From an uncultured Planctomycetales bacterium (GTDB taxonomy: Bacteria; Omnitrophota; Gorgyraeia; Zapsychrales; JANLHA01), in the NCBI GenBank assembly GCA_964374105.1, contig CAYJXI010000001.1, positions 199,743 through 263,742 of the forward strand: a stretch of DNA of 64,000 bases, in the 5' to 3' direction. The notes beneath the pieces are model-generated. The model saw only the letters and a program-made list of their open reading frames with translations, was not told where the DNA came from and did no database searches. The translations under genes and the position numbers were made by a program. Shown here in pieces: positions 21,001-46,228 of this stretch. Positions within the stretch are counted from its first letter, which is position 1, and every line of letters begins with the position of its first letter.

Positions 21001-24000
21001 CTTTCTCCATTTAATCGGCTCTTATGGCGGCCTGATGACTACGGCCGAAGCGGCAGGGTTTGATTTAATAACCTTGGCGGTTTCCTCTAATATGCCGTTT
21101 GCCATTTACCAATTAACCAGAAAGAAAGATGACTTAAGTTCACTGATGAAGGAGGAAGGCCGTGAGCCTCAGAAACTAAAAGAGATTATCCGGATAAAGC
21201 TTGAAAATTTGCCTCTCCCATCCGCTAAATTTATTCTTGAAAATTTAATCCTGAAATCCACGTATCAAGACCCAGAGATCAAGAACTATCTTTCGGCTCA
21301 GGCGCGAATGGCGCTTTTGGCCAAGGCCTTGGCGGTTTCCCTGAAAAGAAAGGATGCAAATGAGATGGCCGTTTACCTTGAATCTCTCCTTAAGGAATCT
21401 CGCCATTTGATCCTACCTTCTGCACTAATGTTTATCCGTTCTTATTTAACCGTGTATTATCTTAAACAACCGCTAAAGCTTGCCTTTGTGATTCCTGTTT
21501 ACGGCGGACAGAAGGCCTTCTTGGATTTTAAGGATGGCGGAGAGGGCTGGTTGAGGTTCAAGGTTGATCAGTTCTTTGTAGAATTGTTATCGGTCAATCC
21601 AAAGGTCAAGGGAAATTTCATCTTTGTCAATGACGGAGATGATTCAGCCAAGACCGGAAGAAAAACTAGTGATGTGATCCGCGACCTCCTTAAAGATCCT
21701 TTTTATGACAAGGTGCGTGGACAGATCTTTGTTCTCGATCTGCCGCAGGAGACCAAGGTTAAGATGAAAGGAAAGAAACATAGTGCGGTTGCGGCGGGAA
21801 TGAAGTTTGCCTTGGAAAGAGGAGTGGATATTGTCATGTACACCGACCCGGATCTGGCCAGTCATTTGGGATTGAGTGGACTCTTGGTTGATTCTTTGAT
21901 CAACCGCGGATTTGACATGGCGTTTGGTTCGATTGAAATGAAAGGTTCAATTGTTCCTATTCGTTCATTCAAACGCCGTGTTGGGACTCTTGCTTATAGT
22001 CTTTGGGTGAGGATTAATCTTATAAGATACATTCTTAAAGTGAAAGATACCCAAAGGTCTTTCAAGGCCTTTAAACGAGAGATATTAGAGAAGATTATGC
22101 CTATTAGGAAAATGAGTGCTGATCAAAATGGGATCATCCAGCTTAAGGATTATGATCCCGATTTCCATTATGATTACACCGGTGACACCGAATGGATGGG
22201 GCGCGTGAAGATTGTGGGAGGAGGTTTAGAAGAATTCCCGATCGTTTGGATTGATTCACCGCAAACCGCCCAAACAAGTCTAAAGAAAGATGCCTGGCCG
22301 ATGTTTAAGGCCCTAACAGGGCAGAGAAGATCTTTAAGGAATTTTGCCTTAAAGCATTCTGGATTACGATCAACAAATCACGACCCGCAAAACAAGGGCC
22401 GTAACGACAAGGCGTGGGTCTTAGAGGATTTCCGGGATGCTCCCAAGCTCGAGGTTCGGGATGAGAGAAGTCTAGGCTTCGATCCTTGGCGAGATTTGAT
22501 TAAGGAAGTGGATACTTCTTTATTGAAAGAAGCGATTGGTTTGATTCAGCACACTGATGAATTCCCAGGGCAAAAGAGTTTGGTGAATATCCTTAAAGAA
22601 CTCATGAACTTTAGGCGGATCTTTTTTGCTAAGAACCTGCCTGGGATGTTTAGGGCCGAGCGACTCAATGAGGGAGCATATTTGATTTTGATCGATCAAT
22701 CATTGCATTGGTTATTTGGCGGAGCGGACTCTCTGATTCGTATCCGCAGTCCTTCCCCCCGTCAGAGAAAAGCCCTCTTAGCTTTCCTTGCGGCCAAACT
22801 TCTGCATGAGGCCGCGGAAATCCTTATGTCGAATCATCCTAAAGTGCATTGGCATTTGGATGAAAAAGATCCCTCCCTCACTACAACCGAACAGGTTGCC
22901 TACTGGGTTGAGGTGATTTTCTTAAGCCGTATCCCCGCCTTCTGGTTTGATTTTAAGAAATTCCTTAATCCCACAACCGTCTCTCCCTTATTTGTTCTTT
23001 ATGAATCTGTTTTTAGTGGGGAAGAATCTTTAGGCCGTTCCCCGGATCAATCTCCCAAGCCGTTAAGGCAGTTCCTGGCTACTTTAGGTTATCTGGCACC
23101 TTTACAGACTAAACTCTCCCGGGAACTTTTCAAACATATCCTTCAGCAGTTCGATGTTAATCTAGCGGAATTTGAAAGGCAAGAGAATCTTCGGGATTTG
23201 ATTGAATCCACCGTTGGTATTGCCGCGGCGCATTTTGATGACAGTCCCATCGGACGGTTAGCAACTGGAGTAATGATCAGCCGGGATTTTCTTATGACCA
23301 GTCTTCATGTTGTTGAGGATGAACAGGTACGGTTGCAGTCCTTTTTCAAGATTTATATGTTTGTCCCGAGGTCAAATGGCAACAGCCTTTTAAGTAAGAA
23401 ACCCAAGATGTCTGAAGCGAAAGTCGTGGCTATGCATCTCAACCAGGATTTGATGTTATTGAAGATCGATCCAGCCTCGATCCCGTCAGGGATTGTCTTA
23501 AGAGAAGTTAAGCTGGGGTATCAGGAGAGCTTGAAGGGAGGAATGCCGTTAATCATTTCCACCCTTCGTTCAGATGAAAAAGCGATTGATGAGAAGGCAC
23601 CGAGAATTCAGATCACCTCCACTTTGATTCCTCCTGTCGAAGAGGACCTCATTTATATGAAATTTGCTTCATGGAAAGGAGTGAGTGGCTCGCCCGTTGC
23701 TGAACGAGGTGGGCGCTTGGTGGGGATTTATATCGCGACTGAAAAATTAGGCATGAAAGATAAGGGTGTCGCGCATTCCATTGGGGCTGTGCGCAGCATG
23801 ATCGAGACATTGAAGATTCCACTGTCGCAGAGTCACGGCCGTTCAGCAGATCATAAAAGTGACAGTCACTCCCGCCATGGCGGGATGACTGTCACCTTTA
23901 GAGAAAAAATTAAGAAATGGTTAGTGAAGGCAATCGAATTTCAGGATAATATAATTCGAACATCACGAATTCCTATCTTTAAGTTTTTAAGGCTGCTATC

Positions 24001-27000
24001 TTTTGTCCTCAGGAGTTTGGGGAGACAGACGTTCAACCTGCCGTGGCTGGTTGAGTGGTTCTCATCCTGGCGTTTTCTTGGGATGGGAAAGATAGCGGCC
24101 TTTGTATTCAAAGAAAAAGGTGATCCCGCCAAGGCGGGATCACCTTTCCCCGCTGAGATATCAAAAGAGCAGCATGGATTCCTTGGGAATTTGGATCAAG
24201 ACCACTTAAGGAGTCTTCAAAGAATCGTTGAGTCGAATCGTGGTTTTGAATCCGTTAAGGAATTTAATCGTATCCTAGGTTCCTATTATGGGATTAAAGT
24301 CGAATTCTATTATTTCACAGACCCCTTCTCACGTTTCCCACCGACGCCCTTTGTGGCGGCTTTCCATCGCCAAACTCAACTGAGAATCTTTTTCTCCTCA
24401 GTTCATTTCTTGAATCAATTCAAAGTTCATTTTAGGAATCAGTTGTCTTCTGTTTTACAGTTGATTACAACCCATGAATATATGGAAGTGGTCCAAAGGA
24501 AATCTCACCAAATGGTTGATAAACAAACCAGCCAACTTTATAAAGACAGAGAGCAAGGCACCTTAATTCTGGAAAAATTAGACGAATTCTTTGGGACTAT
24601 GTACCTTGTCAATGCGTTTCTTGATTTGGAGAAATTGACGAGTCCTTATTGGAATGTCCGCAAGAAGACGCAAAGGCTGGCAAAAAAGGGCGGCCTTCAA
24701 GGGGCGGTTATCCCGGCAACAATGCTCATTCGCCATCAAAATAAGGATGGCCCTGAGGCCAAGGTAGTGGATGAAATGTTCCGTCAGGGTTGGCTTAAAT
24801 TTGTTCATTTAAGTGAAGAGGTTGTTTTATCCCACAATCCCAGGTATACCTATCAAGCTGTTTATTTGATTGATATCCCAGAGGAAAAGATGACAAGCCG
24901 TGATGTTCCCCTCAAAAGCCTTAAAGAATATCTTAAATTGGGAGAAGAATACCTTGGAGAAGAATCTTCTTTGGAGGAAAGAAGAGGCCGTTCGAAAGAT
25001 CGTTCCCGCCCCCTTCCCGGCAAAGACATGCCTTCAGCGGATGACATCAAAAAAGAGCTCCTGAGAGTTTTAAAACCTTATAAAAATGTCATTAACGAGC
25101 TGCCCCTCTTGAAGCCCAATAGCCCTGCGATGATCCAAGCATGGGCATTTTTAAAGAGAGATAAAGATCATCCCACTTTGGCACCTGCGCTTGAAACCTT
25201 TGCCAGAGAAGGCCGTATCCGGGCCGGGCCATTTGAAGGCTTCTTGGCTACAGTTTATCGAGTGAAGAAAGGAGGAGAATACATCCTTCTTTCCACCGCC
25301 TATCCGGAATTCAATTCCACCATCCAGAGAGCAGCCTCTCTTATTCATGAAATTGGTGCAGTCAGCCTATTTCATCTAGATCATCCAATGAATGAAAATA
25401 GAGAAAGGACCTATTTGACCGAGAAGGTCAGTGAGCTGATTTATGAACTTCAGTATCGCTCCACCGATGAGATGTTCGCTGACTTGGCGAATCTGCGTCA
25501 TTATTTTTCCGAGGGACATCTCGAGCAATTGATCCATTTAATCTTAATCCAAAAGGGTCTCCCTCAGAAAACAATAGCTTATATCATTGGGATTATCTCA
25601 AGTTTAGCCGAAGCTAATAGGAAGATATTTACACCGAAAAATTTAAAGGCGGTGCTGGAATTGCTGGCAGAGAAAGAAAAACATCCCATGATGGATCAAT
25701 TGATTCTATTGTTTAAGGATGCCAATCCACCGGCTTTCACAATCGAGAATCTGGCCTTTGTCATTGACTTCATATTGACTGTAATTGAATTCCAAGAAAA
25801 AATTGTCGAGGTTATTTACATTTTTAAAAAGATCAATCCTCTTTCATTTGACACAACGAATTTTAATACTATTCTTCCCCTGGCCGAGGAGGACCGGACA
25901 GAGGTGCGGGAAACCATGTTACGCGTGGCTAGGATCTTTAGAGAGGCGAATCCTTCCGTGTTTACTGCGGCTGGATTGTCCCAGCAGTTTGTCCGATTAA
26001 GGACAGAAACAGAAATGAAGTTTCTCATCAGTCGACTAAGGCTAGTGGCTATTTATTTTGAGGCGGATCAGGGATTAGCACAAGAAAAAATCTGGAATGA
26101 TTTATGGGATCTGCCAGTCATCTTGGAATATGATGATTATTTGGTTGCTTTCTATGACACGTTGGCCTCACTGATCAAAGCCAATCATACCATCGTTAGC
26201 GAACCTCATCTTGAAAGATCCATTGGCAGCTGGATCAATGATTTTACGGATCCGGGAGGGATGTTAACGGGTGGTGATGTAAAAGTGATCGCGGCAAGAC
26301 TTAGACTGTTGCATGTCTTTTTACGCGCTAACAAGACCTTGGCTACCGAATCTCGATTCGCCCGGGTGATGATTTATTTATCGCAGGGGCTCAGTTTTGA
26401 TCCTTTGATCCTTCGGACCAGTTTTGAAATCTTAAAGACGTACGCAGAAATAAATCCTGATCCTAAGTTTTTCTCAGAAGATCATTTGAGCATTGTCATT
26501 AAAAGTTTGGTTGAAGAAGTACCCAAACCGGGAGAATTCGAAAAGCCAAAAAATCCCCACCGAGTTGATATTGTCAAAATATTTAAAAACATCAACCCGC
26601 AATCATTTTCTTATAAAAATTTATTGGCAGTGATTTACTTTTTTGCTCAATCGGATGAACTGGTACGACAACAGGCCAGTCAGATATTGGACATCTTTAT
26701 TGAGGTGAATCATCATATTATAGACGATTCGATCTTACGGGCCTTGGTGGTGGTTAATTTGATCGCTGAGGAATTGTATTCCGAAGCTATTCAGGCAACC
26801 CAAAGAGTCAGGGGGCTACTAGGAAGGGAGCCTTTTGATATTCAAGATTATGATCTCATCGTAAGAAATTATCTGCCGTTCCTGGAAACCTGGGAAGAGA
26901 AAATCCGTGCGTATCAACGCCTTAAGGCAGGGGAAATAGAAGGATTTGATTTTAAGGCCTGGCGGGAATTTATATTAGACCTTACGAAAGAACAGGGGCT

Positions 27001-30000
27001 TGTCTTTGTTTGGCTTTTGGTGTGGGATATGTTGGAATTAAGAGAAAGAACTGAGATTCTGGATGATTTGCCTGTCCGAATTGATTCTTCGGCAGATCGT
27101 TGGGACATCGAACTGATATTCGGAAGAAAAGGGATCTTTGATGCTTTAAGCTCATTGGAAGTCCATGATCGGCGCAATGCACAGACAGCTGTTTTAAACT
27201 ATTTCGGCAAAATCAAATGGATTCAGAAACGCTTGAGCCGTGATCCGCGGATGAGTTTCTTATGGGAACTGGATGAGCCATCCTTAAGGGACTTGATTAC
27301 GATTATTAAAATTACCCATACCAATAGCACCTTGGTCTTTAATGCCATGACCATGGCGGAAGTTTTACCTGAGGAAATTAGAAGTCTCATTAAGGTCATT
27401 CCGTTTAATAACACTTTAACTGCGGTGATCAACCTTTTCGGTGAATATGCCAATTTCATCATGGATTTGCGCAGTAACGGCAAACTCAAATTTTTAATCG
27501 AAATGCTGACCTTTGTTGGTTTAGAGAAGAAACAATACTCGCTCACTCAAATTGAAGGGATCTTGGGCTATCTTGCTGAACACAGATCCAAAGTTCTGAG
27601 TTGGAGTAAAAAAGATTTTCAAGATTTTGAACTGGATTGGTATTCCTATTCAAAGGCCATCCCGATCTTCCATTCTCGCCTGTTTGAGTATTTTATTAAG
27701 TATCAAGCTCAGGAGCACCTGATTCAGCAAATGAGTCAGGATGTCCAGGAGGAATTATTGGGCATCGCTTGGGGCAAATTTAAAGGATTAAAGGGAAATT
27801 TGCGAAAGTATGGGATGACCGATAGGGATGAATTTGTTTTGCTGCAAAAATACATCCCAATCAAGGGATACGGGCCTACCATTTATGCGGATGTCTTTCA
27901 GAAGTTGACCGAGGCTGTTGAAACAAGAAAGATAACAAGAGAGGATGAACCAGAATCTTATCTCTTAGATCAAATCCTTTTGGTGAGAGGAGAACGGGAG
28001 ATCAGACATCTTAAGGGATCAGAAAAATTGAATGATCAATGGATGGATCAGATGCTGAAACTTTTTGCTGAGCCGCCAGCGGAAAGTTTGTCTTTATCAG
28101 AGCGTATAAGTCAATATCTTAAGGAGGGTCTCTGGTCTAGAGAGCTAATGGAGCAGTCGGCGATCATGTGGCTGTTAGCAAAACCCACCTACCAAGAACG
28201 GTTGTCGAAATTAAAGAACAGATTAGAACAATTTGATCGTTCTGATATGACTTTGCAGATCGAAAGCTATCTACAATTGATGGAGGATATCCAAGTTTTC
28301 CTCTCGGATACCTGGGAAAATGATTTAAGGGATGCCCGCAGTCAACTCCTCAAAGAAGTGGTGGAAAAAGAAAGAAAGGCGGGTTTAATTAACTTATCAA
28401 CGGGTTTAGGAAAAATTGCTGTTGTCAAAATGCCCCGGAAGAAACTGAAAGCGGTCTTTGCAAAGATTGCATTGCCCTTTGATACCCTTTCTTTAAGTCA
28501 AACATGGGCCCAGGAATTAGGTCTAACGTTGTGTGATAGGAATTCTCTGAAGCGGCTGAAGGAAGAATGGAAAGTCAAAATGATTGAGTACATTATTTCA
28601 ATCTTTAAGAAAGAATCCAAAGGGGAGGTGGCCGAGGAGACTAAGGCAGCAATTAATGAAGCTTTTGATCTTATGATTTCAAAGGAAGAAGAACGAAGAA
28701 GCAAAAATGAGTTAACCAATGAAGAAATCCAAAAGATAACTTTAGATTTGGAAAGAAATTTACGGGAGATATTTAAATCCAAAGTTCTGTTATTGGAAGA
28801 AGAGACGCAGAAATTTGAGACTATCACACTTCCGGGGATGGGGAATACGGTGGTGATGGGACTCTTTGGGGATCCCTTGAATTTGATGTATTGTCAGGGA
28901 GAATGTACTTTCCGCGATTGGCCAAGGGCGATCCTTGATCAAAGATACTTTTATATGAAGTTATTGATTAAAGAGCCCGGGGTGGAAAGTGGAGGGCGTG
29001 TCTTAGGGGGAGCGCAAGTACAATTTTTAAAAGAGACAATCAGAGAAAGAAAAGTGAAAAGGATGCCCCGGGGTTGGGCGATTTTGAGTTTACCAGGGAT
29101 CAATATGGACGAAGGGATCGATAAGTATGGGATCGGAAAGCGCCAAGGGATAAGGTTCCTGTTAGAATTTGCCCAGCGGTTAGCCGAGGAAACCGGACTC
29201 CAAGGAGCAGTCATCCCCATCGATATTTTGATCCGCCACCAAAATTCTGAAGGACCCGAGGCAAAGGTGGTTGAAGAACTGATTCAAAAGGGGTGGTTGA
29301 AACCGGTCAAGTTGAGTTCAACCGTGGAACTAGCCCCTAAAACAGAATTCAATAATCAGTATACTTACGAAGATGTGTATCTAATAGATATTCCTAAAAA
29401 CGAGATGATGACAAAGGAGACACCTTTTTCAAATCTCAAGGAATATCTGGAAAGGGAGGAACAAACACCGTCCCTTGTTGCCAATCTTCCCGGGATCGGG
29501 GTGTGGATGCGGGTCTTATTGGCAGGGGGAATCTTGCCGCATGAGTTAGGACACCTCATCGTTGGGCCTCAAAAGGGTAGAAGGTTAGATTACGGCTTAA
29601 GGAGAATTCTGAAAGGCCTTTTCTATGCTATGCCCTGGCCAACCCGAGGGCCGCCGGCCTTGGTTGGTCTGGCGGTGAATCTCTTCTTGGCGGTTGTTTT
29701 AGGGCTTTTGATCTGGTCAGGTTTATTGAACTTTGGGTTTACATCGAATTCTTCGGCCTTTCTCTTCTACCTCTTTATTTCCAGCCTTATCGTATTTCTT
29801 TTGGAAATCCTGCTCACCCCATTTGCGGAAAGCTTAAAGATAAGCCGATTTGCGGATTTAAGACAGATGAAAGGTGATCCCGCCATGGCGGGATCACCTT
29901 TTTATATCCCAGGGCCGCTGCGAGTGTTCAACCGACCGTGGCTTCCTGCACCACACAGGGTGCAGGACCATGAACCCAATTCCGTACCACATAGGGTACG

Positions 30001-33000
30001 GGACGGTGAACCCTACGTGGTTCACCGTGTGGTTCATGGGGTTGAGCTCTTCCCGCCTCAGGCGGGAGCAGCGGCCCTGTATATATTTAAAGGAAGAAAT
30101 ATTATAGAGAAAGACAGTATAAGTATAACATCTGCCATTGAGGGGATGCCAAGGCCTAAGTCCAGTGATCAAAGCAGGCATCCCCTTGATTTAAAGGATA
30201 TGTCATTCCCGCGCCCGCCCGAGGCGGGTCCGCCTCTGGCGGAAAAGCAGAGATCCAGAAGGTACTTGTTTCCAAAATCCCGGATTCCTTCTTACGCAGG
30301 AATGATAAAGGTTGATAACGGGCCGCTACAGAACGTTCTTCACCTGGATCCGTGGCTGGGTGAGAGCACTTCGTCTGCGCTCAGCGCAGACGAACCACTT
30401 GCACCACCACAGGAAGGTAGCATCTCTGCTTTGAGGAGAGGCAGAATGCACCGAACACTTCCTATTAAGGAAGAACCTGTGGTGAGGGGTGTAGCGGCCC
30501 TACTCATAAAAAACTTTGTCCATCCACACGGTGGACAAATCTGCCAAAACTGTGTCGCTTTACTCCTTAAATCTGATATTGCTCAGGAACTTATTCAACA
30601 GTTGCGGGAAATCTCTGGTGCCATCCGCTGGATCAATGGCCATCCGTATTTTAAGATCGGCCCGATGGTTAAGATCCTTGAGGGTTTTGTTCGAAAAGGT
30701 CTCATGGCACAATCTGAGCTCGAGGCGATTTATGTTGAAGAAGACGAGCACGGTTACCACGCCACGCACATGAAGACAAGCACGCAACTCATCCACGCCC
30801 CCCAATACGCCTGGATTGGGGCAAAGAAGAAGGCTAAGGAGGATGAGGCACTCTTTGATTTTAATGAATTCCTGAAGTTAAAGGGCTGGAGGGCTCGTAA
30901 GGCCTTCAGGAAGCATTCCCAATTTTTAAACAACACTGAGAGGTTTGCCTTAGGGGCAAGAGACTTTATTTTGAGATTAAGGACGATCAGAGTGCCTTAC
31001 GAAGTCCAGTGGTGGGTTCTGGAATTTTTGGCACGATCAACCGGCTTTTGGAGTCTAAAGCAAATAGAAGCTTTGGTTCAAATCATTTTTAGTCGACAGG
31101 TTGATGATGAAGTCTTGAATTTATTATCTCGTTTTAACAATGTGAGAGGGATTCAACATGTCATTGGGAGGCTAGCGAAAGAATATCATCTGCGGCGCTC
31201 GGCAAGCATAGAACTTTATGTAGCGAAATATTTAGAGGATAAATATAAGGCCACGATTTTGGCTTTTAATGAAGAGATATTGGATAACAATAAAAAACCT
31301 ATTGCGGAATTTGATGTCATCTTTAAGCCTTATCGGCGAAAAACAATTGTCATCGCAGAGGTTTTCAGTTTCTTGCTTCAACCCGATCAAAGTTTTGTAT
31401 ATGAACGCACGATAGAAAAATTTGAAGAGAAGATCAGCAGGATAACTGATCCAAGAAACGATGATTGGATGATTTTAGAAAAGCTTAAATTTAGGGATAT
31501 CAAAATTTTATTGGTGTTTGAGCCAAGTCAAAAGCAATATTACGAAAGAGATTTATTTGGGGTGATCCAAGATGCATTGCAACAGAGCAGTTCAAAAAGA
31601 AAATTGGAAACGCTCTTTATTTCATTTCCGACATTAATCATTCAAAAAGAAGAAACATACGATCATGTGAGTTATACCAAACAGAAAGCGACTGATCGTA
31701 GTGTCTATTACGGTGTTTATTCTTACCGACCCTTCCATCAACAAACCACCTTAGAACAAGAAGGGAAAATGAGAAGAAACATCATCTGGTTGCGGTCAAA
31801 GATCTTAAAAGCGCTTATGAAACAAAAGGCTAAGGAAAGGAAGGAGCAGAAACTTAAGGAGAGACAAACATGCGCCAATTGTTTGACTAATCAACTCCAT
31901 CAAATGGGTTTGAGAGAAAAGTCCACAGATCTTATTCGACATTTAAGATCCAAGCTCGGGAGTATAAAAAGATTTCCTCATTTAAGTAATCCGGTTTTTA
32001 ATGCCAAAATCGTTAATGAATTTTTGCCTGAGGATATCACAAAAAAGATTTATCTTAAATATTTAGATCGAATTGATCAAGAGATCATTTATCACGTCAG
32101 TCAAATTCCCACCGCTATTACGCTCTGGGATCTGCGTCACGAAATTCATTTTTGGGTAGGGGCGAAGGTAAAAGAGGAAGAAAAAGGGGACAGTCCCCAA
32201 AGAAAAAGGGGACAGTCCCCAATTATCCAGTTGGATTTGTTCGATTTCATTGCTGAGAGCGCACTTAAGGCAAAAGAGGAAAAAGAATCACAAGTAGCAC
32301 AACAACCCAAAGGAGACTTTGTGTCAGCAGTCTTTAGCCAGATTGTTCCCCTTATTAAGAATAATCCACGGATTTCCATCATCCAGATTAATTATAAAAT
32401 TCAACCCTTTTATGATCCCCTCAGCGGGTGTGACCGATGCTTCGTAGAAGGAACCGTTGTTCATGAAAAGAATAGCCAACAGGAGAGAATAGGTTGGTTT
32501 GATTTTTATGTTTATCCTCAGGAGAAGATTACCATCGAACATTATTTCCCCATTGGAGTCCCAGGTTCTAAGACTTGGGAGGAATATCGTAACGTTGGTG
32601 TCAGTCAGACATTCCTCTTTTGGCTTTCGACCTTCGCTAAAACCATTGATGTTGATTTAATTACCATTAACTCCCAATGGCTGGTGGACATGTATATTTT
32701 TGGCAAATACTTTGCGGATCGGATTGGCATCCGTGATCCTAAAGAGCCAAAGATAAATTATTACGAACTTAAAGGTGGCGAACATAAAGGCATTTATGCT
32801 AACGAAAAGATAGGGGTGCTGACGGTTCATGATGTCGAAACCGTGCAAAGAATCGGTGCCGTAAAACTTAAATTTGATGCTTTAAAGGATGAATACGAAG
32901 TATCAGAGAAAATACTTGGGAGTATTCTGGAGGGAACAAAATTAACAATCATTAAGGGATTTGTTTATAAGGACAACGGACTTTTAGGATTCATCCACGA

Positions 33001-36000
33001 CCCCGCTGGGAATTCCATCTTTGAGGGGAAGCCCAGATTCCCGGAGGATATAAGGCCAGAGGCCTATGTCTTCAGCATTCCTCAGGAAGTGGTAAGAATG
33101 CTTAAACCTGTTTACGATGAATCGGAAAAGCAGAAAGAAGCAGGCGGAAACTTATCTCCCAAAGGAAACAGGGATGGCGCCCATTTTTCAAACGAATGGG
33201 AAAATTGTTTAACCCGCTGGCTTAACGCAAGGGAATTCAAGGAAGTGGCCGAGGAATTGGTCAAAGGACTTAAAGAAATTCCAGGGGCCATCATGCGGCT
33301 TAAACGCTACCAGGACCCCTTATTTAATCTTAAAGCCATCAAGGAAGCGTTGGAACAAATCATTCCTGGTTTCTCTGAACAGATTTACTTGAAAAAGATT
33401 GAAGAAGTGATGACTGACGACACTTGGCAAGTGGTTTATCATGTGGTTTCTCCAAAGGAATCCTTGAGCTTGGGTGAGGCAGATGTTATGACCAATGGCG
33501 CCAGGGCGACTTTACTTTCCGAAATCCGCGACCAAAACGCCTGGGTGGGGGCACAAGAAACAATAGATAAATCGCTTAAATCATTAAAACTGCAAAGAGC
33601 GATTTGGGATGCGAGAAAACATCCTTTGGATGCAACGATTTTGCTCAAAGCCGAAGAACTTTTGTTTGCATTCCAAAAAGAGTTTGGGGAAACTCATTTG
33701 AGTGAAAGGGGAAAGTTGCTGAGCCAGATCAGAGCTGGCCGATATCCTCATCATTCCCGCATCATCCGAAGATTTCGCTGGAAACTTCAAGGGAAAGACC
33801 GAAAGATAGAGGAATCCTTACGATTTTTCCATCGCGGCCGTGAGTTGTGGGGAGAAGAGGTTATTCGTGATGAAGATCGGGCGGACTTCCTTATTGCCGA
33901 GGCTAACTTTAAGGCTTTTAAAAGAGGGAGTTTGACACGCAAAGAACTGGCCTACGCTTTAAGCATATTAGGAAGCGGGAGAGAGGGGAAGTTGAAGCTG
34001 AAACTGCGAGATTTTGTGGTGAGTGCTCTGAGTTTAATTCCTGAGGATCCGCATGCGCTGATCTCAGAAACGGCTTTAAAATTACTTGCTCAATTTCGTG
34101 ACAGCAAGATTCAGGTTGTCTCCTCTGACAAAGGGACATATAGTGTTACGCCCTTTTTTAAACAAGCCCTCCAGTTTCATAACTTAAGTTCTCGGTGTCG
34201 ATATTTATTGCAGCCTTATTGGGAACCAGGCCGCGGCTTGATTCTTTATTGGATCTCTAATAAAGAAACGATAGGCTACGATATGACTCCTTATCGTTCG
34301 GCCAGGCCGTCATCGAAATTGAAAGTTATTCCTGCCCATGTTGTTGTTCGTGCCCAAGATTTAAAAACTGCTCGATGCAATCCTGGCCAGCTCTTAACAG
34401 ACCTGGTAAGAGAAGTTATCCCGATTGATCCTCTTAATCCCGATGAAGCAAGCTTAAAGGCATTGGAAGAATCTCTTAAAGATCGGCGCGATCAACCGCT
34501 AAATATTTTTGTTAAAGGAGGTTCTCATACGGTTAAGCCATGGGAAGATAACAATAAATATATCTCCTTCCAGCACCTGAAACCCAACAGCTCCTATACC
34601 ATTATGCCTTACTGGGAACCAAAAAAAGGTTTAAGGACCTTCTGGGTACGGGAGGGAGAAGTAGCTGTTTATGATCTTATTTTGTATCAACGTTTCCGAC
34701 CTGACAACTCACGGGAGTTAATCAGTGCTAAGAAAGAACGCGAGGATAAGCTCCCTGCAGCTGATCCGCAGCGGTTGAAGGTTTCCTTACTTTGCCGCAA
34801 TTGTTTCATCCTGGCCTTGCGGGAACTAGGATGGGATTATCAAAGATTGGAATCTTTTCTGGAGGCTTTAACAGAAGAAGAAAAACTTAAGGATTCCCCC
34901 AACAGTAAAACTCCTTTGATCAAGGCCCAGGCCATTGTCCGCATTTTGGCAGATGAGTTTGAGACAATCGCAAAGGAAATTTTTATGAGGGGGAGCGGGA
35001 CAGATGTGCAAGGGCGTAAAATTTATCATACTTTCTTATCTGAAAAAGGCACACGGGAAGCAGAAGCGTTATTAAACGTTATCCTCGATTCCAGCATGTG
35101 GGTAGGGGCGAAGGCTAATGAGGAAGAAAAAGGGGACAGTCCCCATCCGGGGCATCCGGGGACAGTCCCCACCGATCCCTTAGAAAAAGGACAATATCTG
35201 GTTATCGCCATGGAAACGGAAAGGTTGTCGGAATTAAGTGACCGGATGCGGGAAAGGGCGCTTTCTAAGGAGGGCCGAAAAATTAAAAGAAAAGGGCTTA
35301 ATGAAATTATCGCCTACTACGAGGAACGCAAAGCCGCTTACCAAGAGCTGGAAGAATTTATGAACAAGATCATTGCAATCGAGGACCCGTTTGACATTGA
35401 TTTTGAAAGACTGTTTGAATTGTATGTCCAGATCATTTCCTTTGCCCATATTCGGGCTGGATTCCGTCGGCGCGTGATCGGACCTTTAAGGTCACTGCTT
35501 TTTATGAAATTGCCCGGCTCCATAGCCCTTTTTGTACAACGGTGGATGTCGTTTATTTCCACCGGTCTTTCTGACATCACAACGCACCTCAGGGATGTGG
35601 AGTATAAGGAATTGTTATTTGTCATTGAACTTAATCCCAAGGCGAGAAAGATTATCCTAAGCCAAGAGAGTCCGCTGGTGCTCAAACAATTATCGCAAAG
35701 GGCAAAACCGGTTTATCAGAGTCTGGAGGATTTTGCCTTTCGCTATAAAATTGAACGTAACCAGAATGATGATATGACCAACCCCCTGCCTTTAGAAAAA
35801 CTGTTAAGCAATATCCGAAAAGACCTTGAATCCGGGGAATCCCGCAACCCGATCCCCCTATTGTTTAGCCGGACACCGCAGGGATATGCCTTTGAGTTTG
35901 AGCAGATCGGAAAATGGGTCAGACAGAAAGCGCCTCGTTTTGATGTAGAGGTTTTCCAAAAGATCATGATGATTTCTTGGGAGATGCCGGCCCAGCTCGA

Positions 36001-39000
36001 TAGGGAGCGCCATTGGCAGCATCGTTATCAGAACCAGTTACAGGGAATACTGTCATCGATAGAAAAGCGATTGAAGAAGGCCCGTTTGTTGAGTCAAAGA
36101 CAGAGCGTTTATGACCTTTCTGCGGAGGAATTGCTTAATCTGATTGAGAGGTACCGCCACTTAGACCCCCACCGCGCTAAGGCGGGCCTGCCTGCCGGAC
36201 AGGCAGGGAATCAATTGCCAAAAACAGAGCCGGAGCGGGAAGAGGCGATCCAGCAGGAAATTAGCGGCAATCGACCCCTATTTCTTGAACAGAGTCAATA
36301 CGTTCTCGAGGCAAATAAGGAAGCGAAAGAATTGGTGGGAGAGAAAGATCGGGATATTGTACGATCTTTAGAGCAGATGTCTTCTATGGAAATTCGCGCC
36401 GGGCCGATGCCGAATTTGTGGAGTGTTGTTCGGGAAGTGTCGCTTGTGAAGCGTGAAGCGTTAGGAGAAAAACGAGATACGAGTCCCGCCTCACGGGAGA
36501 CGAGATATGTCCTCCACCTCGATCGATCCCTCTTTGATTCCGCTAACCGCCATGAACTTCTTCTCACCCTCATCCACGAAGCAGGTGTCCTTCTGGGCCG
36601 AAGCGATGAAGACAATGAAAAATTTGCCCAGAAGGTTTTGGGTGATTTTGGTATAGAGAAAATTCATTTGCATTCATTAAAAGATATTGGAAAAGTTGAC
36701 CAATTGGTCAAAAAGATTAAAGAGCTCATTCAAAGTGGCTACTGGAAAAATGTTTTTGAGCTTTTAATGGAACATCTTGGCAAAGATCCAGAAATTGATT
36801 CAAGGTTGATAAGGGATGCTATTGAGTATGCATTCCGCGAGACTGCCTTGAAGTTATATGGGAATTTTATTCCTACCAAATTTATTCAGGCAGCAGGGGG
36901 TTTTCTGTTGAGGCTTACTCGGAAGGCTACAAAAGAAAAAAGGTATGATGTCTTGAGGGCTATCCTGGAACATTATGGGAATTCTTGGTCTAACAAAGAT
37001 TCTGGTGTGAAAAGATTGATTCTCCAAGAAGAGCCAGCCCTGTGGCCACTCCTTTATATTTTCGATATGGTAATTAAAATTTTAAAGAAAGATGATCCAA
37101 CATCTCACCCAGAGATCTTCGAGCATGTTCTTCCTTTCATTATCGATGTATTTCCACCCAAGACACTTTATTGGATTAAAACTCGACGGATTACTAGAGC
37201 ACCAGGATTCATAACATCTGATGATCGATTTGAGTCGAAGGAGAGTCCCTTTGTGCAAAAAATGGTTGAATTGTTTAGTCTGCTTGCTGAAAAGTATCCC
37301 GCTCATCCTTTATTACATTTGGCTTTAGAGAAATACATTGGTCTGCGAGAAAAGGTACAGGAGCAATTACAAAGAAAAAGTAGACTGATGGGGCCGTTTC
37401 GAGCGTTAGCTACATTGTTAGGTTTTAGGAGAGAGGGAAAGTCTTTGGAAATTCAAAGGTCTTTCACACTAACACCTGAAATGCAATCTCTTCTTCCTCG
37501 GATTGAATTGAAACCAGAAGAGATGAATTTAATATTAGATCAGAAAAGAGACATCGAGGAAACAGCGGTAACATTTTTGAAAACATGGGATGATTTTGTT
37601 ACGGCCTTTCAAGTCCTTTATAAGGCTCTACGTGATGAGACCTTGCGGATTTCTTATGATTTTGACGTGGAGGGCCGGCATACCCAAGGAGGGAGAATCA
37701 TTGAGAAAGCCTATCACGAAGGATGGATTCATGATACAGGTTTCGAGGCCTATATTCACCTTCCGGTCGGGATTCAGATACCTTTGAAAAAATGGTCAAG
37801 TATATCTGATTATAATTGGTGGGATGAGTATCATAAGCCTCTACGATATTATTTGAATTATTCTTTAGATATGGAAAGAATTCAGGAATTATTCCAAGGG
37901 CTCACATTCTCTGGTCTAAAGATAGGGGATCGTCTGGCCGAAGACGAAATTTGGGATGAGGGAATTATATGGGCTATGCTGGACAATAAGTTTAATGAAC
38001 AGTTAAATACAGTTCGCACTTTGAGAGAAGAATTAATTCGGTTAGCTATCAAACTCGAAGCCGTCAGTACAGGTCAGACAGAGGAAGAAATACGGAATCA
38101 ATACGATGGGAGTGCGTTGGTTAGAAAATGGCTTAAGAAATTTGGGATTCATGTTCGCGAGGCTAATAATCTTGATTTTAAGAAATTGACTTTTGATAAA
38201 TCTGCACAAACTGAAGAATCTTCAAAAGGTGATGAACAATCTGAGGATGATCGTGAATTCACCGATCCCCACCGCGCCAAGGCGGATAACAATCTGCCGA
38301 AAGATCCGGTTGAGCGCGAAGAGGCGATTCAGAAGGAAATCGCCGGTACTCAGAAATTGACGGGCTCCCAAAGGCAATACGTACTCAACGCTATCTGGCA
38401 AGCTCTGAAACTGGCCAAAGAAGATCAAGAAATCGTCCGCTCGTTTGAAGAGATGGTCAAAATGGAAATCCGCGCCGGGCCGTTTAGGTATATTTGGGGC
38501 ACCATTCGTACATTGTACAGCGTACTTCGTACGTCGAATGAACCGGGAACTTTACGAAGTACGATGGACGAAGTACGATGGACGTTATTCCTCGATCAAT
38601 CCCTCCTTGATCCTGTCAATTATCGCGAGCTTTTAATCACTCTCATTCATGAAGCCGGAGTCCTTCTGGGAAGAAGTGATGAAGATAACGAAAAATTCGC
38701 GCAACAAGTCATCCCCATTTTAAGCCAACCGGCCCAAGAACGGATCCTTGAGATGGTTCGAAAGTACTTCCTCTATCGAAAACCATTGAAGGATGAAGAA
38801 ATTATCCAACTTATCGGGTTTATTTCAGCTCAAATTCAGGTTCCTGTTGAAGAGCATGGCAAAGCTGTTCGTGAAATGCTGGCAGAGATAGTCAGGCATG
38901 ATCTTTTTGAACAAAACAGGTTCAATAGGATTTTAGAATTGGCAGGAATTTGGTACGAGCATTTTTATGTATTTTCAACTGAAGCGCAGGAGCCGAGAAC

Positions 39001-42000
39001 AAGAGGTTTAGAGTCAGTGCTTTTTGTGGACCAGCCAGCAGCCAAAAAAGAGTCAGTCAATCCTATCAAAGCAGCGCGTACTTTGAAAGAAAAAGGCGTC
39101 TCTTTAAAAGGATTAGAGCGAATGATTGGTTATTCCCGATTCGTTGTAGCTGTAAGGCAAAAGGAAACAATCGAACATCACAGTTCTTACCATGTCAAAG
39201 AACGAGAAAGAAAGAGCCAAGGCGATTTAAAACGATTGGAAGTCGTTCGATATATTTACAAAGCTGAAAGGTTTAAAGACGTAGAGATTGGCTCGTTAGA
39301 ATTGGGATTAACATCTGAAGGGATTGCTCTGGTCGCAGGTACGGTGTTCAATCAATTAGAGCGTTACCGGCAATTCAAGCCTGACCGGTTCAAAATTATT
39401 TTAGACACAATGAATGAAGTGTTTAAGATTTTTGTCCCAGAGGAAGGGATTTACGGCGAGGCATATCTCCGTTCAATGGGAGAGGTCATTGATCAGTTGT
39501 TAAAGCAAAGGGATTTCGGAAAAGAAGTCAACGACATCTTGGCAGGCGTGGCTTTATGGAATAAAGAGCTGCGTGGGCGGTTTAATCAATGGCTCGAGTA
39601 TCAAAAAGAACCCACAAAATATGTTAATCCAATCCTTGCTCTTGCCGCTCGGAATATTCCTGTATCTCAGCTGCAAGCTGTCATCAATTATTTAAGGATC
39701 AAACTGGGAGAAGTTCAGAATATCTTCTTCTTATTTTTAGAGCTGCGAGCGCAGAGTGATTCAGGTATTACAAAATCGCAAACAGCCAAAGAGCAGATGG
39801 ATGCATTCGAAGGAACTTCGCAGGCGGAAATTGAATTTGTCAAAGCCTTATTGGCAGCCATACAGGCACGCAAGCAAGAAGGAGACAATCTTGAATCCCG
39901 TGGATCCCCCGATCCCCACCGCGCCAAGGCGGGGAATCATCTGCCGGAAGATCCGGTGAAACGCGAGGAGGCGATTCAGAAGGAGATTGCTGGGAATCAG
40001 AAGATCCCCGATAAGGTAAGAGAATATGTGGTACGAGTTATCAGAGAAGCCCAAGGGATCGTGGGCAAAAAGGACCGAAAAATCGTCAGGGCCCTGGAGG
40101 AGATGGCCTCCATCGAGATCCGCGCGGGACCGTCGTTGAACTTGTGGGGAGTTATCCGTAATAGGTCAAAGGTCAAAGGTCATAGGTCAGTGGAAAATCC
40201 TATGAGCTATGACCTATCAGCTATGAGCTCCCCAGCTATCAGCTCTTCGGCTGAAGTTAACATAAAAAGGGACAGTCCCTTTTTATGTCAACCTGTTCTC
40301 TTCCTCGACACTTCCCTCCTTGATCCCGATAACCACCAGGAACTTCTCATCACCCTGATCCACGAAGCTGGCGTGCTCTTGGGCCGCGGCGACAAACGGA
40401 ATGAACGATTTGCCCAGCGGCTCTTTAAGACCCCCGCGCCTTCCCTGAGCTGGCACGCCTTCAAAACAGAGTTTATAAAGTATCCTTTGAAGAGACAGTT
40501 GTTCATGTTGACAGGTTTCATCACTGAGGTTGTGGGAATATTTCTGGGAAGCCAATTGTTAGTCCTTGCCGGGATAGGGGTCCTTATTCCCTGCGCGGTC
40601 ATCATGGTTCGATCGGCCATCAAACGTGAGGACATGACCCGCACCCTTTTAACCCAATGGATTTTAAAAAATATATATTTGAATGAGTTCTCAAGTCAGC
40701 ATTTGATGGACCTCAACGCGGTGATTCGATTGCTTGCCTCACTTGGGAAATTAAACCTCGAACTTAAAGAAGCGCTTCTCCATGACCTGCTGGAACGCTA
40801 CGCGTTAAGAAAACCAGGAAAATTTAATTTAGATCATCTTGATCAACTGACCCGTCATTTTGAACCGAAGGGATTGGTTCGTTATTTTCTATTTTATTTG
40901 TCGACCCGGCCCAAGGTCGCGGCTCAAGTTCGTTTCATGGTCAAGCAGTGGATAGAAGAGAACAAGCTCTTCCCCTTACATTCCGTCATCAAGAACAATC
41001 TTTCCATCGGCCCCAAAAAGGTTCTGGTGATTCACAACATTGCCGACGGAATGGGGGATGAGTTGATCCGTGTCGGGACATTGGTCCAGGCCTTATTAGA
41101 CTTCAATCCTGAATTAACGGTCACCATTATCACGACTAGAGATTACCTTTATGATCACTCCCGCGTGCGGCTTGATGTCGATGGCGAGCTCAAGGCATTG
41201 GAGCATGATTATGATGTCGTGGTTCATTACTACGACAAAAAACAAAGATTTTCCGATGTATTAGAAAAACGCGTTCAAGATTATCTGCAGACGCACCCTA
41301 AGATATTTCTGTATATTAGAGCCGACAAAGCCACCGATCTGTTTACCTTTTCTGAAGTCATTGTCGATCAGAAAGAGTACGCGGATGAGCTTAAACTCAA
41401 CCAGCCGCGAGGGAATCATCTGGCCTTCTCTAATAATGTCTATGAACCAATCTTTCGGTTTTTGGCTGAATTGGGGATTCCCTTCCGCGTGGGCGAGGAG
41501 GAACCGCAAGGTGAGTCGTTGTGGATTGGGAAACCCAATCCTGAGGCAGAGATTTTTTGGCAGGATGGTCTCAGCGCGTTCCGCAAGTTACAGGGGAGGT
41601 CTCAAGGAGACAATCGGCCGGTTGCCTTATTTATGCCTTTTGGAGGGATGCATCCCAGCAAGGGAATCGATGCTCTTGAGCCTGAGTCTCTCTACCTCTT
41701 CCTCACAATGGTCAGGCACCTCATCAGTAAGGGTTATGACATTATTATTATTCCCAATGGAGAAACGTGGGGATCTTCAGAGATTGCCGTCGCCATTGTT
41801 GAACGGCTTTTTAATCATGAGGAAAAGACGCACATCATCATAGGTCCGGAACCCAGGGAAATCCCCAGAGACCTCAAATATCTAATTTCCTACTCAGACT
41901 ATAATTTATTCTTTGAAGGGGGCATGGTTCATTTAGCCTATCATCTGGGATGTCCGTATCATTTTCTAACGATGCCCGGTTCAGGAGTTTTATCAAAATG

Positions 42001-45727: not shown

Positions 45728-46228
45728 GCCCATGACCCGCACTTTGACCAAATCCGCAAAAATGCCTTTAATGGTGATGATCCCCAAAGATCACAAACCC
45801 AATCTCCCAACGACCCCCACCGCGCGAAGGAGGGCGACCGTGTTGAGACAGACCATCCTTTAAGACCAATCAGCCAGCTGGGCGCCGTTTTGTGGCGATT
45901 TTATCAGCCTCGGGTGGCATGGGGATTTTTAAGAATTGCCTTTTCAACGACCGTGGCGAATTACCGGCACCTGCGCCATCACGGTATTCGCGGGGCGCCA
46001 CTGGGACGAATCCAAGCCGCACTCCGCGCGCCCTTCTTCAAAACCGCCGAACGTATTGACGGCCTGCCGCGGTGGAATATCGACCGCCATCTCCTCCCCG
46101 AAGATATCCAGCGCCTCGTTGACATCCACGAATCGCAACCCTGCTGCCGCTTGGGTAACCGCGAGATGGCGATAACCATTCAGAAAAGGGAAAGCAGACA
46201 ACGATCTAAAGAAAATTCAGCAGATGTC
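45728..46228 (+). other. Junction between the two giant ORFs. The single in-frame TAG (45725-45727) is followed by 54 stop-free in-frame codons that include a DPHRAKEGDR motif copy (45812-45841), then a ~400-bp GC-rich (~60%) block, before AT-rich ORF2 proper (an in-frame ATG is at 46229).
   Basis: Frame arithmetic: positions 2, 45725, 45812 and 45890 are all 2 mod 3. The GC-rich block shows ORFs on both strands in the provided track. Confidence 0.6.

Follow-up and report, generated by a model that had tools for sequence, protein, structure and literature searches.

Classical REP families consist of units of 20-40 nucleotides (nt) and are species- or genus-specific. REP and REPIN elements are reportedly mobilised by RAYT (TnpA-REP) tyrosine transposases, as Nunvar is said to have described in 2010, Bertels and Rainey in 2011, and Ton-Hoang in 2012. 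TnpA-REP from Escherichia coli and the IS608-type Y1 transposases act on single-stranded hairpin DNA. We analyzed a window of 64,000 nt from an Omnitrophota genome (contig CAYJXI010000001.1 of assembly GCA_964374105.1, forward strand, positions 199,743 to 263,742; deposited as an uncultured Planctomycetales bacterium) in which a 13-nt palindrome, GGGGACAGTCCCC, occurs in pairs inside a giant gene. These 13-mer pairs are probably a miniature palindromic repeat of the REP/REPIN type that sits in frame in linkers of the giant gene and is tied, in other genomes, to a RAYT-like transposase.

Di Nocera et al. (2013, PMC3733652) describe RAYT-like tyrosine-transposase genes, called TIRYTs, whose flanking inverted repeats have the consensus GGGGWSAS in common. 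The same study reports that some TIRYT repeat families are self-complementary and occur in dimers or clusters, and that intragenic REP dimers encode 20-30 amino acids (aa), with tRNA synthetases among their hosts (PMC3733652). Quentin et al. (2018, PMC6006769) place most TIRYTs in TnpA-Y1 subclass 2.1, which equals RAYT group 1 and has the widest distribution of all subclasses. They note the motif GGGG[AT][CG]A[CG], but by their account no REP-like sequences were found for this subclass (PMC6006769). The 16-mers that flank RAYT group 1 genes are only moderately frequent (Bertels et al. 2017, PMC5581495).

The palindrome in our window resembles REP and REPIN elements in being a short, GC-rich stem-loop sequence whose doublets fold into a longer hairpin. 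In other genomes the 13-mer is dispersed and mostly extragenic, and identical copies bracket a Y1/HUH transposase-like gene. It also resembles the TIRYT ('TIRtron') repeats, which lie close to RAYT-like genes and form self-complementary dimers or clusters in some published families. It fits GGGGWSAS, and GGGGACAG matches the outer-end TIRYT motif GGGG[AT][CG]A[CG] exactly (consensus from PMC3733652 and PMC6006769). The comparison is made at the level of Y1_Tnp RAYT-like proteins.

Rickettsia palindromic elements (RPEs) and intragenic REPs share with our pairs the arrangement of an in-frame palindromic repeat translated as an extra loop. The tRNA synthetase hosts of intragenic REPs (PMC3733652) have a counterpart in the methionyl- and valyl-tRNA synthetase genes (MetRS and ValRS) that carry the 13-mer in other genomes. 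RPE-1 elements are 100-150 bp long and occur in Rickettsia only, whereas the inserts here measure 35-39 bp and lie in an Omnitrophota giant gene, which places them outside the RPEs. MITEs, or miniature inverted-repeat transposable elements, are likewise small, non-autonomous, palindromic and multicopy, but the 13-mer doublets have no terminal inverted repeats around a core and are an order of magnitude smaller, which places them outside this class as well. No target-site duplication is visible flanking either doublet. The GC clusters and 'byp' elements of yeast mitochondria are further GC-rich mobile palindromes within protein-coding genes. Byps are skipped by ribosomal bypassing, whereas the palindromes here are translated linearly. 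We rejected bypassing between the identical copies: read linearly, the 15,241-aa frame stays open, and a hop of 22 nt between the two copies at site 1 would break it.

Palindrome pairs in the giant gene

Every copy of the palindrome in the window lies within one open reading frame (ORF) of 15,241 codons on the + strand (2..45727). Four exact copies of GGGGACAGTCCCC form two pairs, called site 1 and site 2 below, and the central base is A on the + strand in all four. A scan that allowed up to two mismatches gave 9 matches where shuffled sequences led us to expect 0.99, and 9 was reached in none of 100 shuffles. The two-mismatch variant AGGGACAGTCCCT (40268-40280) forms the core of a longer palindrome at 40256-40292, within the variable linker of the third copy of another module of about 170 aa. 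The features around the pairs are listed below by position in the window.

30812..30826, + strand: codons for WIGAK in module copy A, an empty site without the palindrome
32153..32185, + strand: codons for WVGAKVKEEEK, closing module copy B and abutting the first pair on its upstream side
32178..32221, + strand: perfect 2 x 22-bp tandem repeat, AAGAAAAAGGGGACAGTCCCCA (Tandem Repeats Finder span 32178-32222, 100% match)
32186..32198, + strand: palindrome copy 1, GGGGACAGTCCCC, translated as GDSP
32208..32220, + strand: palindrome copy 2, GGGGACAGTCCCC, translated as (R)GQSP in another frame than copy 1
33542..33556, + strand: codons for WVGAQ in module copy C, an empty site without the palindrome
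35099..35131, + strand: codons for WVGAKANEEEK, closing module copy D and abutting the second pair on its upstream side
35132..35144, + strand: palindrome copy 3, GGGGACAGTCCCC, translated as GDSP
35144..35161, + strand: 2 x 9-bp repeat, CATCCGGGG, making up most of the 13-nt spacer; removal of one unit keeps the frame
35158..35170, + strand: palindrome copy 4, GGGGACAGTCCCC, translated as GTVP in the third frame
40256..40292, + strand: 37-nt near-perfect palindrome, GTTAACATAAAAAGGGACAGTCCCTTTTTATGTCAAC, a core of the same family plus an A/T stem, translated as ...NIKRDSPFLCQ...

This map revises the first-pass annotation of the locus in several details. The tandem pair reported at site 1 does contain two copies, but Tandem Repeats Finder sets the unit at 22 bp rather than 21 bp, so the period is not a multiple of three. 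The paired copies at site 1 are separated by 9 nt. The second pair lies at 35132-35170 as described, with a spacer of 13 nt (ATCCGGGGCATCC) in place of the 15 nt quoted, since the final 'gg' belongs to the second palindrome. A terminator-like variant had been placed at 40264-40286; it is present, and that interval is the core of the 37-nt palindrome. Among the W(I/V)GAK sites described as lacking the palindrome, WIGAK at 30812 was found as expected, while the site near 33540 reads WVGAQ (33542).

The four copies span all three reading frames (GDSP, (R)GQSP, GDSP and GTVP, in order), and GDSP comes from the first copy of each pair only. Because three frames are used across the copies, the conserved object is the DNA and not the peptide. 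The palindrome had been linked to a recurring protein motif, and for the same reason this link is not supported as stated. The pattern WVGAK(V/A)(K/N)EEEKGDSP is indeed encoded at both 32153 and 35099, as would be seen if a peptide (E)EEKGDSP were under selection, for example as a protease, kinase or binding site, and the palindromic codons were incidental. However, the second copy of each pair gives RGQSP or GTVP, synonymous positions match between the two sites, and the 13-mer elsewhere is intergenic or read in any frame or strand (GDSP, GTVP, GQSP, GLSP, GDCP). The frame data contradict selection on the peptide, and we give that explanation practically no credence. Neither the 13-mer nor its complement contains a TAA, TAG or TGA in any of the six frames, as read from the sequence.

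The pairs follow a module that is repeated in the giant protein. Searching the protein against itself in overlapping chunks identified four copies of a module of about 100-120 aa that ends in W-(I/V)-G-A, with the W at aa 10271, 10718, 11181 and 11700 (copies A to D; 23-29% mutual identity). A palindrome pair is present only after copies two (B) and four (D). Related foreign modules also lack the insert. A HMMER search of 1.8 billion representative proteins returned P0141 (...AWVGAGAAEEELARL) and P0147 (...AWVGTKKTERND), with AWVGA or AWVGT at the corresponding end; these are distant modules that serve as empty-site comparisons, not orthologues. Relative to paralogous and homologous modules, the palindrome pair is an insertion. 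AlphaFold predicted module copy two as a confident domain (blocks with a predicted local distance difference test score, pLDDT, of 84-95) whose last strand is F-W-V. The segment right after this domain (residues 127-157), which includes the palindrome-encoded KGDSPQRKRGQSP, has a pLDDT below 50, and the insertion site is predicted to be disordered. The two empty paralogues, the empty foreign modules and this low-scoring segment bear out the earlier proposal that the palindrome was added onto a pre-existing repeat position.

The sequences upstream of the two pairs are closely similar. The stretches 32153-32185 and 35099-35131 are identical at 30 of 33 nt, including all synonymous WVGAK positions, although the modules that they end are only 29% identical in aa. 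This excess similarity may be the trace of a short gene conversion that copied one filled site onto the other. The W-V-G-A domain had no significant fold match in the PDB, and a word-indexed search of 5.8 billion proteins gave no homologue of aa 10401-11900 at E <= 1e-5. For the palindrome region of the giant protein, the collections searched held no true orthologue, and the full HMMER scan returned distant modules only.

Since the 13-mer is self-complementary, neighbouring copies can pair with each other. The hairpin of copies 1 and 2 has a 9-nt loop on a 6+6-bp stem that contains one A.A mismatch. The computed DNA fold of the site 1 doublet has an energy of -13.0 kcal/mol (z = -6.45) and that of the site 2 doublet (copies 3+4) -13.1 kcal/mol (z = -3.17), compared with -3.3 kcal/mol for a lone 13-mer. 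As RNA, site 1 folds at -33.7 kcal/mol over 101 nt (z = -4.5). According to these folds, the pairs share with REPs and REPINs a short GC-rich palindrome that forms a stem-loop as a single strand.

The 13-mer in other genomes and its RAYT-like neighbors

We scanned one genome per species for two 13-mers 1-31 nt apart. Such pairs occur at 120 loci or more (a lower bound) in about 15 phyla. The matches listed come from Omnitrophota, Planctomycetota, Actinomycetota, Bacillota, Bacteroidota, Pseudomonadota, Acidobacteriota, Kiritimatiellota, Patescibacteria, Elusimicrobiota and others, and the cultured isolates Lederbergia, Neobacillus and Pseudoduganella carry pairs as well. The first-pass annotation had named, among its refuting conditions, a lack of other genomic copies as consistent with chance; the same pair at no fewer than 120 loci of other genomes speaks against chance. 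Among the matches listed there are 343 exact copies of the 13-mer and few variants, with A or T as the central base in either orientation, and the compensatory double variant GGGGTCAGACCCC is among them. No base outside the 13-mer is conserved across 342 copies, and a conserved GTAG (or CGTC) tag is absent. Spacers and flanks are family-specific within a genome, whereas periods vary from 16 to 40 nt between genomes. The pairs of other genomes combine central bases as A/T, T/A or A/A. A CRISPR repeat, a sequencing adapter and an assembly artefact were ruled out by the genome-specific flanks, the presence of the motif in cultured isolates and the frame-preserving inserts.

Most sites lie outside genes: of the 46 at low-GC loci, 33 (about 70%) are extragenic or touch the edge of a gene, and the other 13 fall within long open frames. 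In Lederbergia (L036) the motif occupies six successive intergenic regions, giving six sites within 8 kb. Some of these Lederbergia sites (L036 2611-2662, 4154-4205 and 5922-5975), and one in Neobacillus (L077 887-977), are composites of about 50 nt in which 13-mers surround a central GTTAACGCGTTAAC-like palindrome; they sit in successive intergenic regions.

Pfam confirmed most of the 13 low-GC intragenic hosts, and similar hosts at higher GC, as real genes with the doublet in frame. These hosts encode a MiaB-like protein (Omnitrophota), MetRS (Patescibacteria), ValRS (Saccharibacteria), glycosyltransferases of the GT9 and GT4 families, ATP synthase gamma, AcrB, peptidase U32 and CobQ. The Omnitrophota MiaB-like radical-SAM gene (L020 4052-5380) contains three in-frame doublets within 560 nt, two of which share an identical 45-nt element. 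A large serine-recombinase-like ORF (2496-4139) immediately precedes this gene. A literature search for the exact 13-mer returned unrelated eukaryotic primers and similar items only, and two preprints on Omnitrophota giant genes are silent on palindromes. An exact self-palindromic 13-mer that recurs across phyla and often resides in frame in housekeeping genes was not found in the searchable literature.

We compared the 13-mer with a control palindrome of the same shape. The control was GGGGCANTGCCCC in all 16 combinations of centre bases; its pairs and arrays turned up at 100 loci of a metagenome collection far larger than the genome set, and these loci look similar to those of the 13-mer. 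We therefore dropped the idea that a paired G4-N5-C4 palindrome is special in itself; paired G4-N5-C4 hairpins are a general class. Per centre combination, the GAC/GTC 13-mer is at least 6-10 times commoner than GGGGCANTGCCCC, a rough lower bound that assumes a metagenome collection of ~1 Tbp and compares two differing databases with at least 120 loci for the 13-mer. Controls on viral contigs gave 3, 1 and 0 loci, too few to inform. The control loci (L126-L225) carry GGGGCA(N)TGCCCC doublets or tandem arrays with genome-specific spacers, including six copies with a 27-nt period at L155. This suggests that they represent further undescribed G4-N5-C4 hairpin repeat families.

A common neighbor gene did not emerge from an all-against-all BLASTP comparison across the 120 listed loci, whose largest clusters were generic ABC-transporter ATPases. 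RAYT-like genes were found via a literature lead, followed by phmmer and a family hidden Markov model (HMM). The family HMM detected Y1_Tnp genes in 6 of the 120 listed pair-bearing loci and in none of the 100 control loci (L126-L225). The exact 13-mer brackets the Y1_Tnp gene on both sides in two Planctomycetota loci (L057 and L081) and in Eubacterium (L047). The encoded proteins, 198-222 aa long, combine a Y1_Tnp domain with about 60-80 aa of C-terminal tail and align at the HUH and Y..NP motifs. They score above the gathering cut-off of Pfam Y1_Tnp and reach 56-79 bits with NCBIfam REP_Tyr_transpos, below its cut-off of 80. At one further locus (L084, about 4480-4560 and 5270-5300), the RAYT-like gene is flanked by GGGGACA(Y)GTACC-N4-GGTAC(R)TGTCCCC. 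This longer relative of the 13-mer has its GGGGAC...GTCCCC outer stem with an inserted inner stem, and a plain 13-mer doublet lies 1.3 kb away.

As an independent test from the protein side, we examined nine homologues of the L057 protein that were chosen without knowing their flanks. In one (P0033; L231-233), from a deltaproteobacterial metagenome-assembled genome (MAG) and seen on many contigs, GGGGACAGTCCCC precedes the ATG by 38 nt and GGGGACTGTCCCC follows the stop codon directly. Another (P0003; L234) has several 13-mer doublets on both sides. The genes from Elusimicrobiota (P0032), Solibacter (P0035) and Omnitrophota (P0042) have flanking inverted repeats that start with GGGGACAG or GGGACAG; the P0032 repeats start GGGGACAGGCTAC, and those of P0035 and P0042 contain GGGGACAGCCTGACC and GGGACAGATACCTATTT, respectively. 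Two more Omnitrophota genes (P0051 and P0078) have flanks with (A/G)GGGACGTCACC. The arrangement expected of a RAYT-associated REP, in which the same sequence flanks a Y1/HUH RAYT-like gene, is found in other genomes at L057, L047, L081, P0033 and P0003.

The Omnitrophota RAYT-like gene occupies the same place in three or four different MAGs (L226 4001-4663, L227/L228 4001-4663 and L241 2558-3217), with spoVG, a gene of the UPF0102 family (PF02021) and a Mg-chelatase-like gene (PF01078) upstream of it. Its position suggests that the transposase is 'domesticated', present in single copy and inherited vertically, and that its flanking repeats (AGGGACGTCACCTATTT or GGGACAGATACCTATTT) differ by lineage.

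Origin of the pairs

We favor the reading, probable in our judgment, that the pairs are REP/REPIN-type repeats. A RAYT-like transposase would act on hairpins in single-stranded DNA and thereby produce copies, and inside genes only inserts of a frame-keeping length would survive. The survivors would be translated as short Gly/Pro/Ser-rich loops (KGDSPQRKRGQSP and KGDSPHPGHPGTVP). Such inserts could persist because the 13-mer brings no stop codon in any of six frames and the reading frame is kept. Site 1 would later have been remodelled by the 22-bp tandem duplication, and site 2 by the 9-bp duplication, which would have taken it from 13+4+13 = 30 nt to 39 nt, both lengths being in frame. Modules B and D possibly, even probably, underwent a short gene conversion with each other. 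The inserts are most likely neutral for the protein and persist neutrally. An odd coding repeat would in this way receive an ordinary explanation as selfish hairpin DNA tolerated in a linker. In-frame palindromic insertion is a known kind of event, while the constancy of the 13-mer across phyla and its residence in essential genes are remarkable.

Several observations weigh against this reading. The family HMM found no RAYT-like gene in the 64-kb window. Outside the giant gene the scan covered ~21.8 kb (18 kb within the window plus 3.5 kb past its end, with about ten intergenic regions), and the 13-mer is absent there, so the family is not visibly abundant locally. Two of the nine RAYT-like genes examined (P0007 and P0096) have no such flanking motif. 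The 30 of 33 shared upstream bases leave room for gene conversion in place of a separate insertion. The unit is fully self-complementary, has 13 nt instead of the 20-40 nt of classical REPs, lacks a GTAG or CGTC tag, and has a core that recurs across many phyla. Its orientation can be defined by the central base only. By that base and, at site 1, by their flanks, the paired intragenic copies are direct, whereas classical REPINs are inverted doublets. Finally, GGGGCANTGCCCC pairs at 100 metagenome loci raise the possibility that the wide spread partly reflects a general G4-N5-C4 tendency.

An alternative is that the hairpins are selected RNA or DNA signals, most plausibly antisense terminators within the 45-kb gene, or barriers to RNA decay. 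REPs have been reported in termination and mRNA stabilisation (PMC3733652). On the minus strand the doublets read as a long GC stem followed by UUUUUCUU, and a consensus scan classified three of the four copies as terminator-like on that strand (GGGGACTGTCCCC then TTTTTCTT) but no copy on the plus strand. The two doublets agree in orientation, and the minus-strand fold of site 1 is stable (-28.7 kcal/mol, z = -4.7). However, with two sites only, a shared orientation arises by chance half of the time, and it may have been inherited with the shared upstream 33 nt. At site 2 the minus-strand fold does not outdo those of shuffled sequences (z = 0.22), and terminator-like matches are not enriched in the region (25, compared with 20.9 +/- 5.5 in shuffles). 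The element in the L020 MiaB-like gene has sense-strand T-runs too, which shows that avoidance of sense termination is not general. We regard selected signals as unlikely. A purely local origin, by quasi-palindrome correction, tandem duplication and gene conversion between paralogous modules and without a transposase, would make the match to the dispersed motif a coincidence. It would account for the common upstream 33 nt, for the plain tandem duplication at site 1 and for the 9-bp duplication at site 2; the giant ORF also contains other, unrelated perfect palindromes, and the control G4-N5-C4 palindromes pair in nature too. Yet all 13 of 13 positions match a motif that brackets RAYT-like genes in several phyla, and a third, diverged copy lies 5 kb off in an unrelated module. 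Omnitrophota relatives have the same doublets in other genes, and a RAYT-like gene from this phylum has GGGGACAG-type repeats on its flanks. These matches leave a local origin a little less likely still than selected signals, although for site 2 it is conceivable.

Along the lines of the slippage variation suggested in the first-pass annotation, the 2 x 22-bp repeat could also be a slippage switch, with the full 15,241-aa protein as one state and a ~10,758-aa product as the other. The direct repeat is perfect, and we computed that gain or loss of one 22-bp unit leads to a stop at aa 10,758-10,759, 4,480 residues short. With a 22-bp instead of a 21-bp period, the predicted outcome of slippage is truncation and not in-frame variation. 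The 9-bp repeat at site 2 would be able to vary in frame. Known contingency loci, however, have many units of 1-9 nt, and site 1 has only two copies of a long unit. Palindrome pairs at varied spacings in unrelated genes and intergenic DNA explain the repeat without a switch. The anatomy of site 1 is unlike a classical contingency repeat; a rare on/off event is conceivable there, and we consider a switch very unlikely.

Beyond the favored reading of the pairs as REP/REPIN-type repeats, GGGGAC(A/T)GTCCCC might be a shared, cross-phylum REP of the largest and most widespread RAYT subclass (group 1 / subclass 2.1, 'TIRYT'). We put this forward tentatively and lean against it. Counts of 16-mers would register too few copies of a 13-nt core whose flanks are free, and if the proposal holds, such a core would have been missed by 16-mer or hairpin surveys. 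Stop-free frames would allow the element to colonise coding sequence, including essential genes of lineages with reduced genomes (MetRS and ValRS of Patescibacteria and the Omnitrophota MiaB-like gene) and linkers in giant genes of Omnitrophota. It would then be a general source of small loop insertions in proteins. Our results suggest that one 13-mer connects RAYT-like genes of many phyla with dispersed repeat populations. The inserts could serve as markers of recent insertion, of permissive protein loops and of the DNA specificity that a little-understood transposase subclass has. For assembling Omnitrophota giant genes and for calling genes there, the repeats are a practical hazard.

The giant gene and its other repeats

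Pfam recognised three domains only in the 15,241-aa protein, which contains 20 cysteines only. These domains and the next gene of the window are as follows.

About aa 4528 of the giant protein: M50 peptidase (Peptidase_M50), by Pfam
About aa 6864-7000 of the giant protein: MTS-type methyltransferase, by Pfam
About aa 7754-7909 of the giant protein: Trypsin_2 domain, by Pfam
45890-52798: ORF of 2,302 aa with an Rce1-like CAAX protease domain, next after the giant ORF

The 2,302-codon ORF is followed by mutL and mutS. The best named relatives of MutS are 63-70% identical, and all belong to Candidatus Omnitrophota. Sister Omnitrophota (P0150-P0153) have MutS proteins with 70-73% identity, a contig of MAG GCA_947085705.1 encodes an identical MutS, and the sequencing runs ERR3478686 and ERR4904391 carry this organism.

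The giant ORF contains a second family of in-frame palindromes with the core CCCGCC(AA/AT)GGCGGG. Five exact copies are present where none is expected by chance (17910-17923, 19275-19288, 23871-23884, 24125-24138 and 29879-29892), with a near copy at 39920-39933. At 24116-24147 and 29870-29901 the core lies in perfect or near-perfect 32-nt hairpins (AAAGGTGATCCCGCC..GGCGGGATCACCTTT) translated as KGDPA(K/M)AGSP, and at 23854-23900 it is nested in a GTGACAGTCAC/GTGACTGTCAC stem. This family (CCCGCCWWGGCGGG) had no match in the fetched loci. An exact 42-nt repeat, GGCGGCCCCCGCCAAGGCGGGGCAGGCCGCTGGCCGTGGATG, occurs at 17903-17944 and 19268-19309 and encodes GGPRQGGAGRWPWM. The segments that host it are about 32% identical as protein, which points to a DNA-level element or a recent conversion.

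Perfect hairpins with a stem of at least 10 bp number seven, where about one is expected for 64 kb. Further examples lie at 11373-11408, 17970-17993, 30003-30028 and 30370-30394, e.g. AATTGTGGCCACGTGGCCACAATT. The module of about 170 aa that hosts the 37-nt palindrome (DPHRAK...EREEAIQKEISGN...MEIRAGP...LLxTLIHEAGVLLG) has four copies with 41-53% identity, as follows.

36164-36640: first copy; linker repeats at 36416-36461
38264-38710: second copy; linker repeats at 38506-38584
39911-40425: third copy; linker repeats at 40163-40229, plus the palindrome at 40256-40292
42185-42640: fourth copy

A variable linker separates the conserved halves of the module, and three of the four linkers contain differing 7-bp tandem and inverted repeats. 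The 150-nt stretch 40150-40299, within the third copy, folds at -56.8 kcal/mol (z = -6.6).

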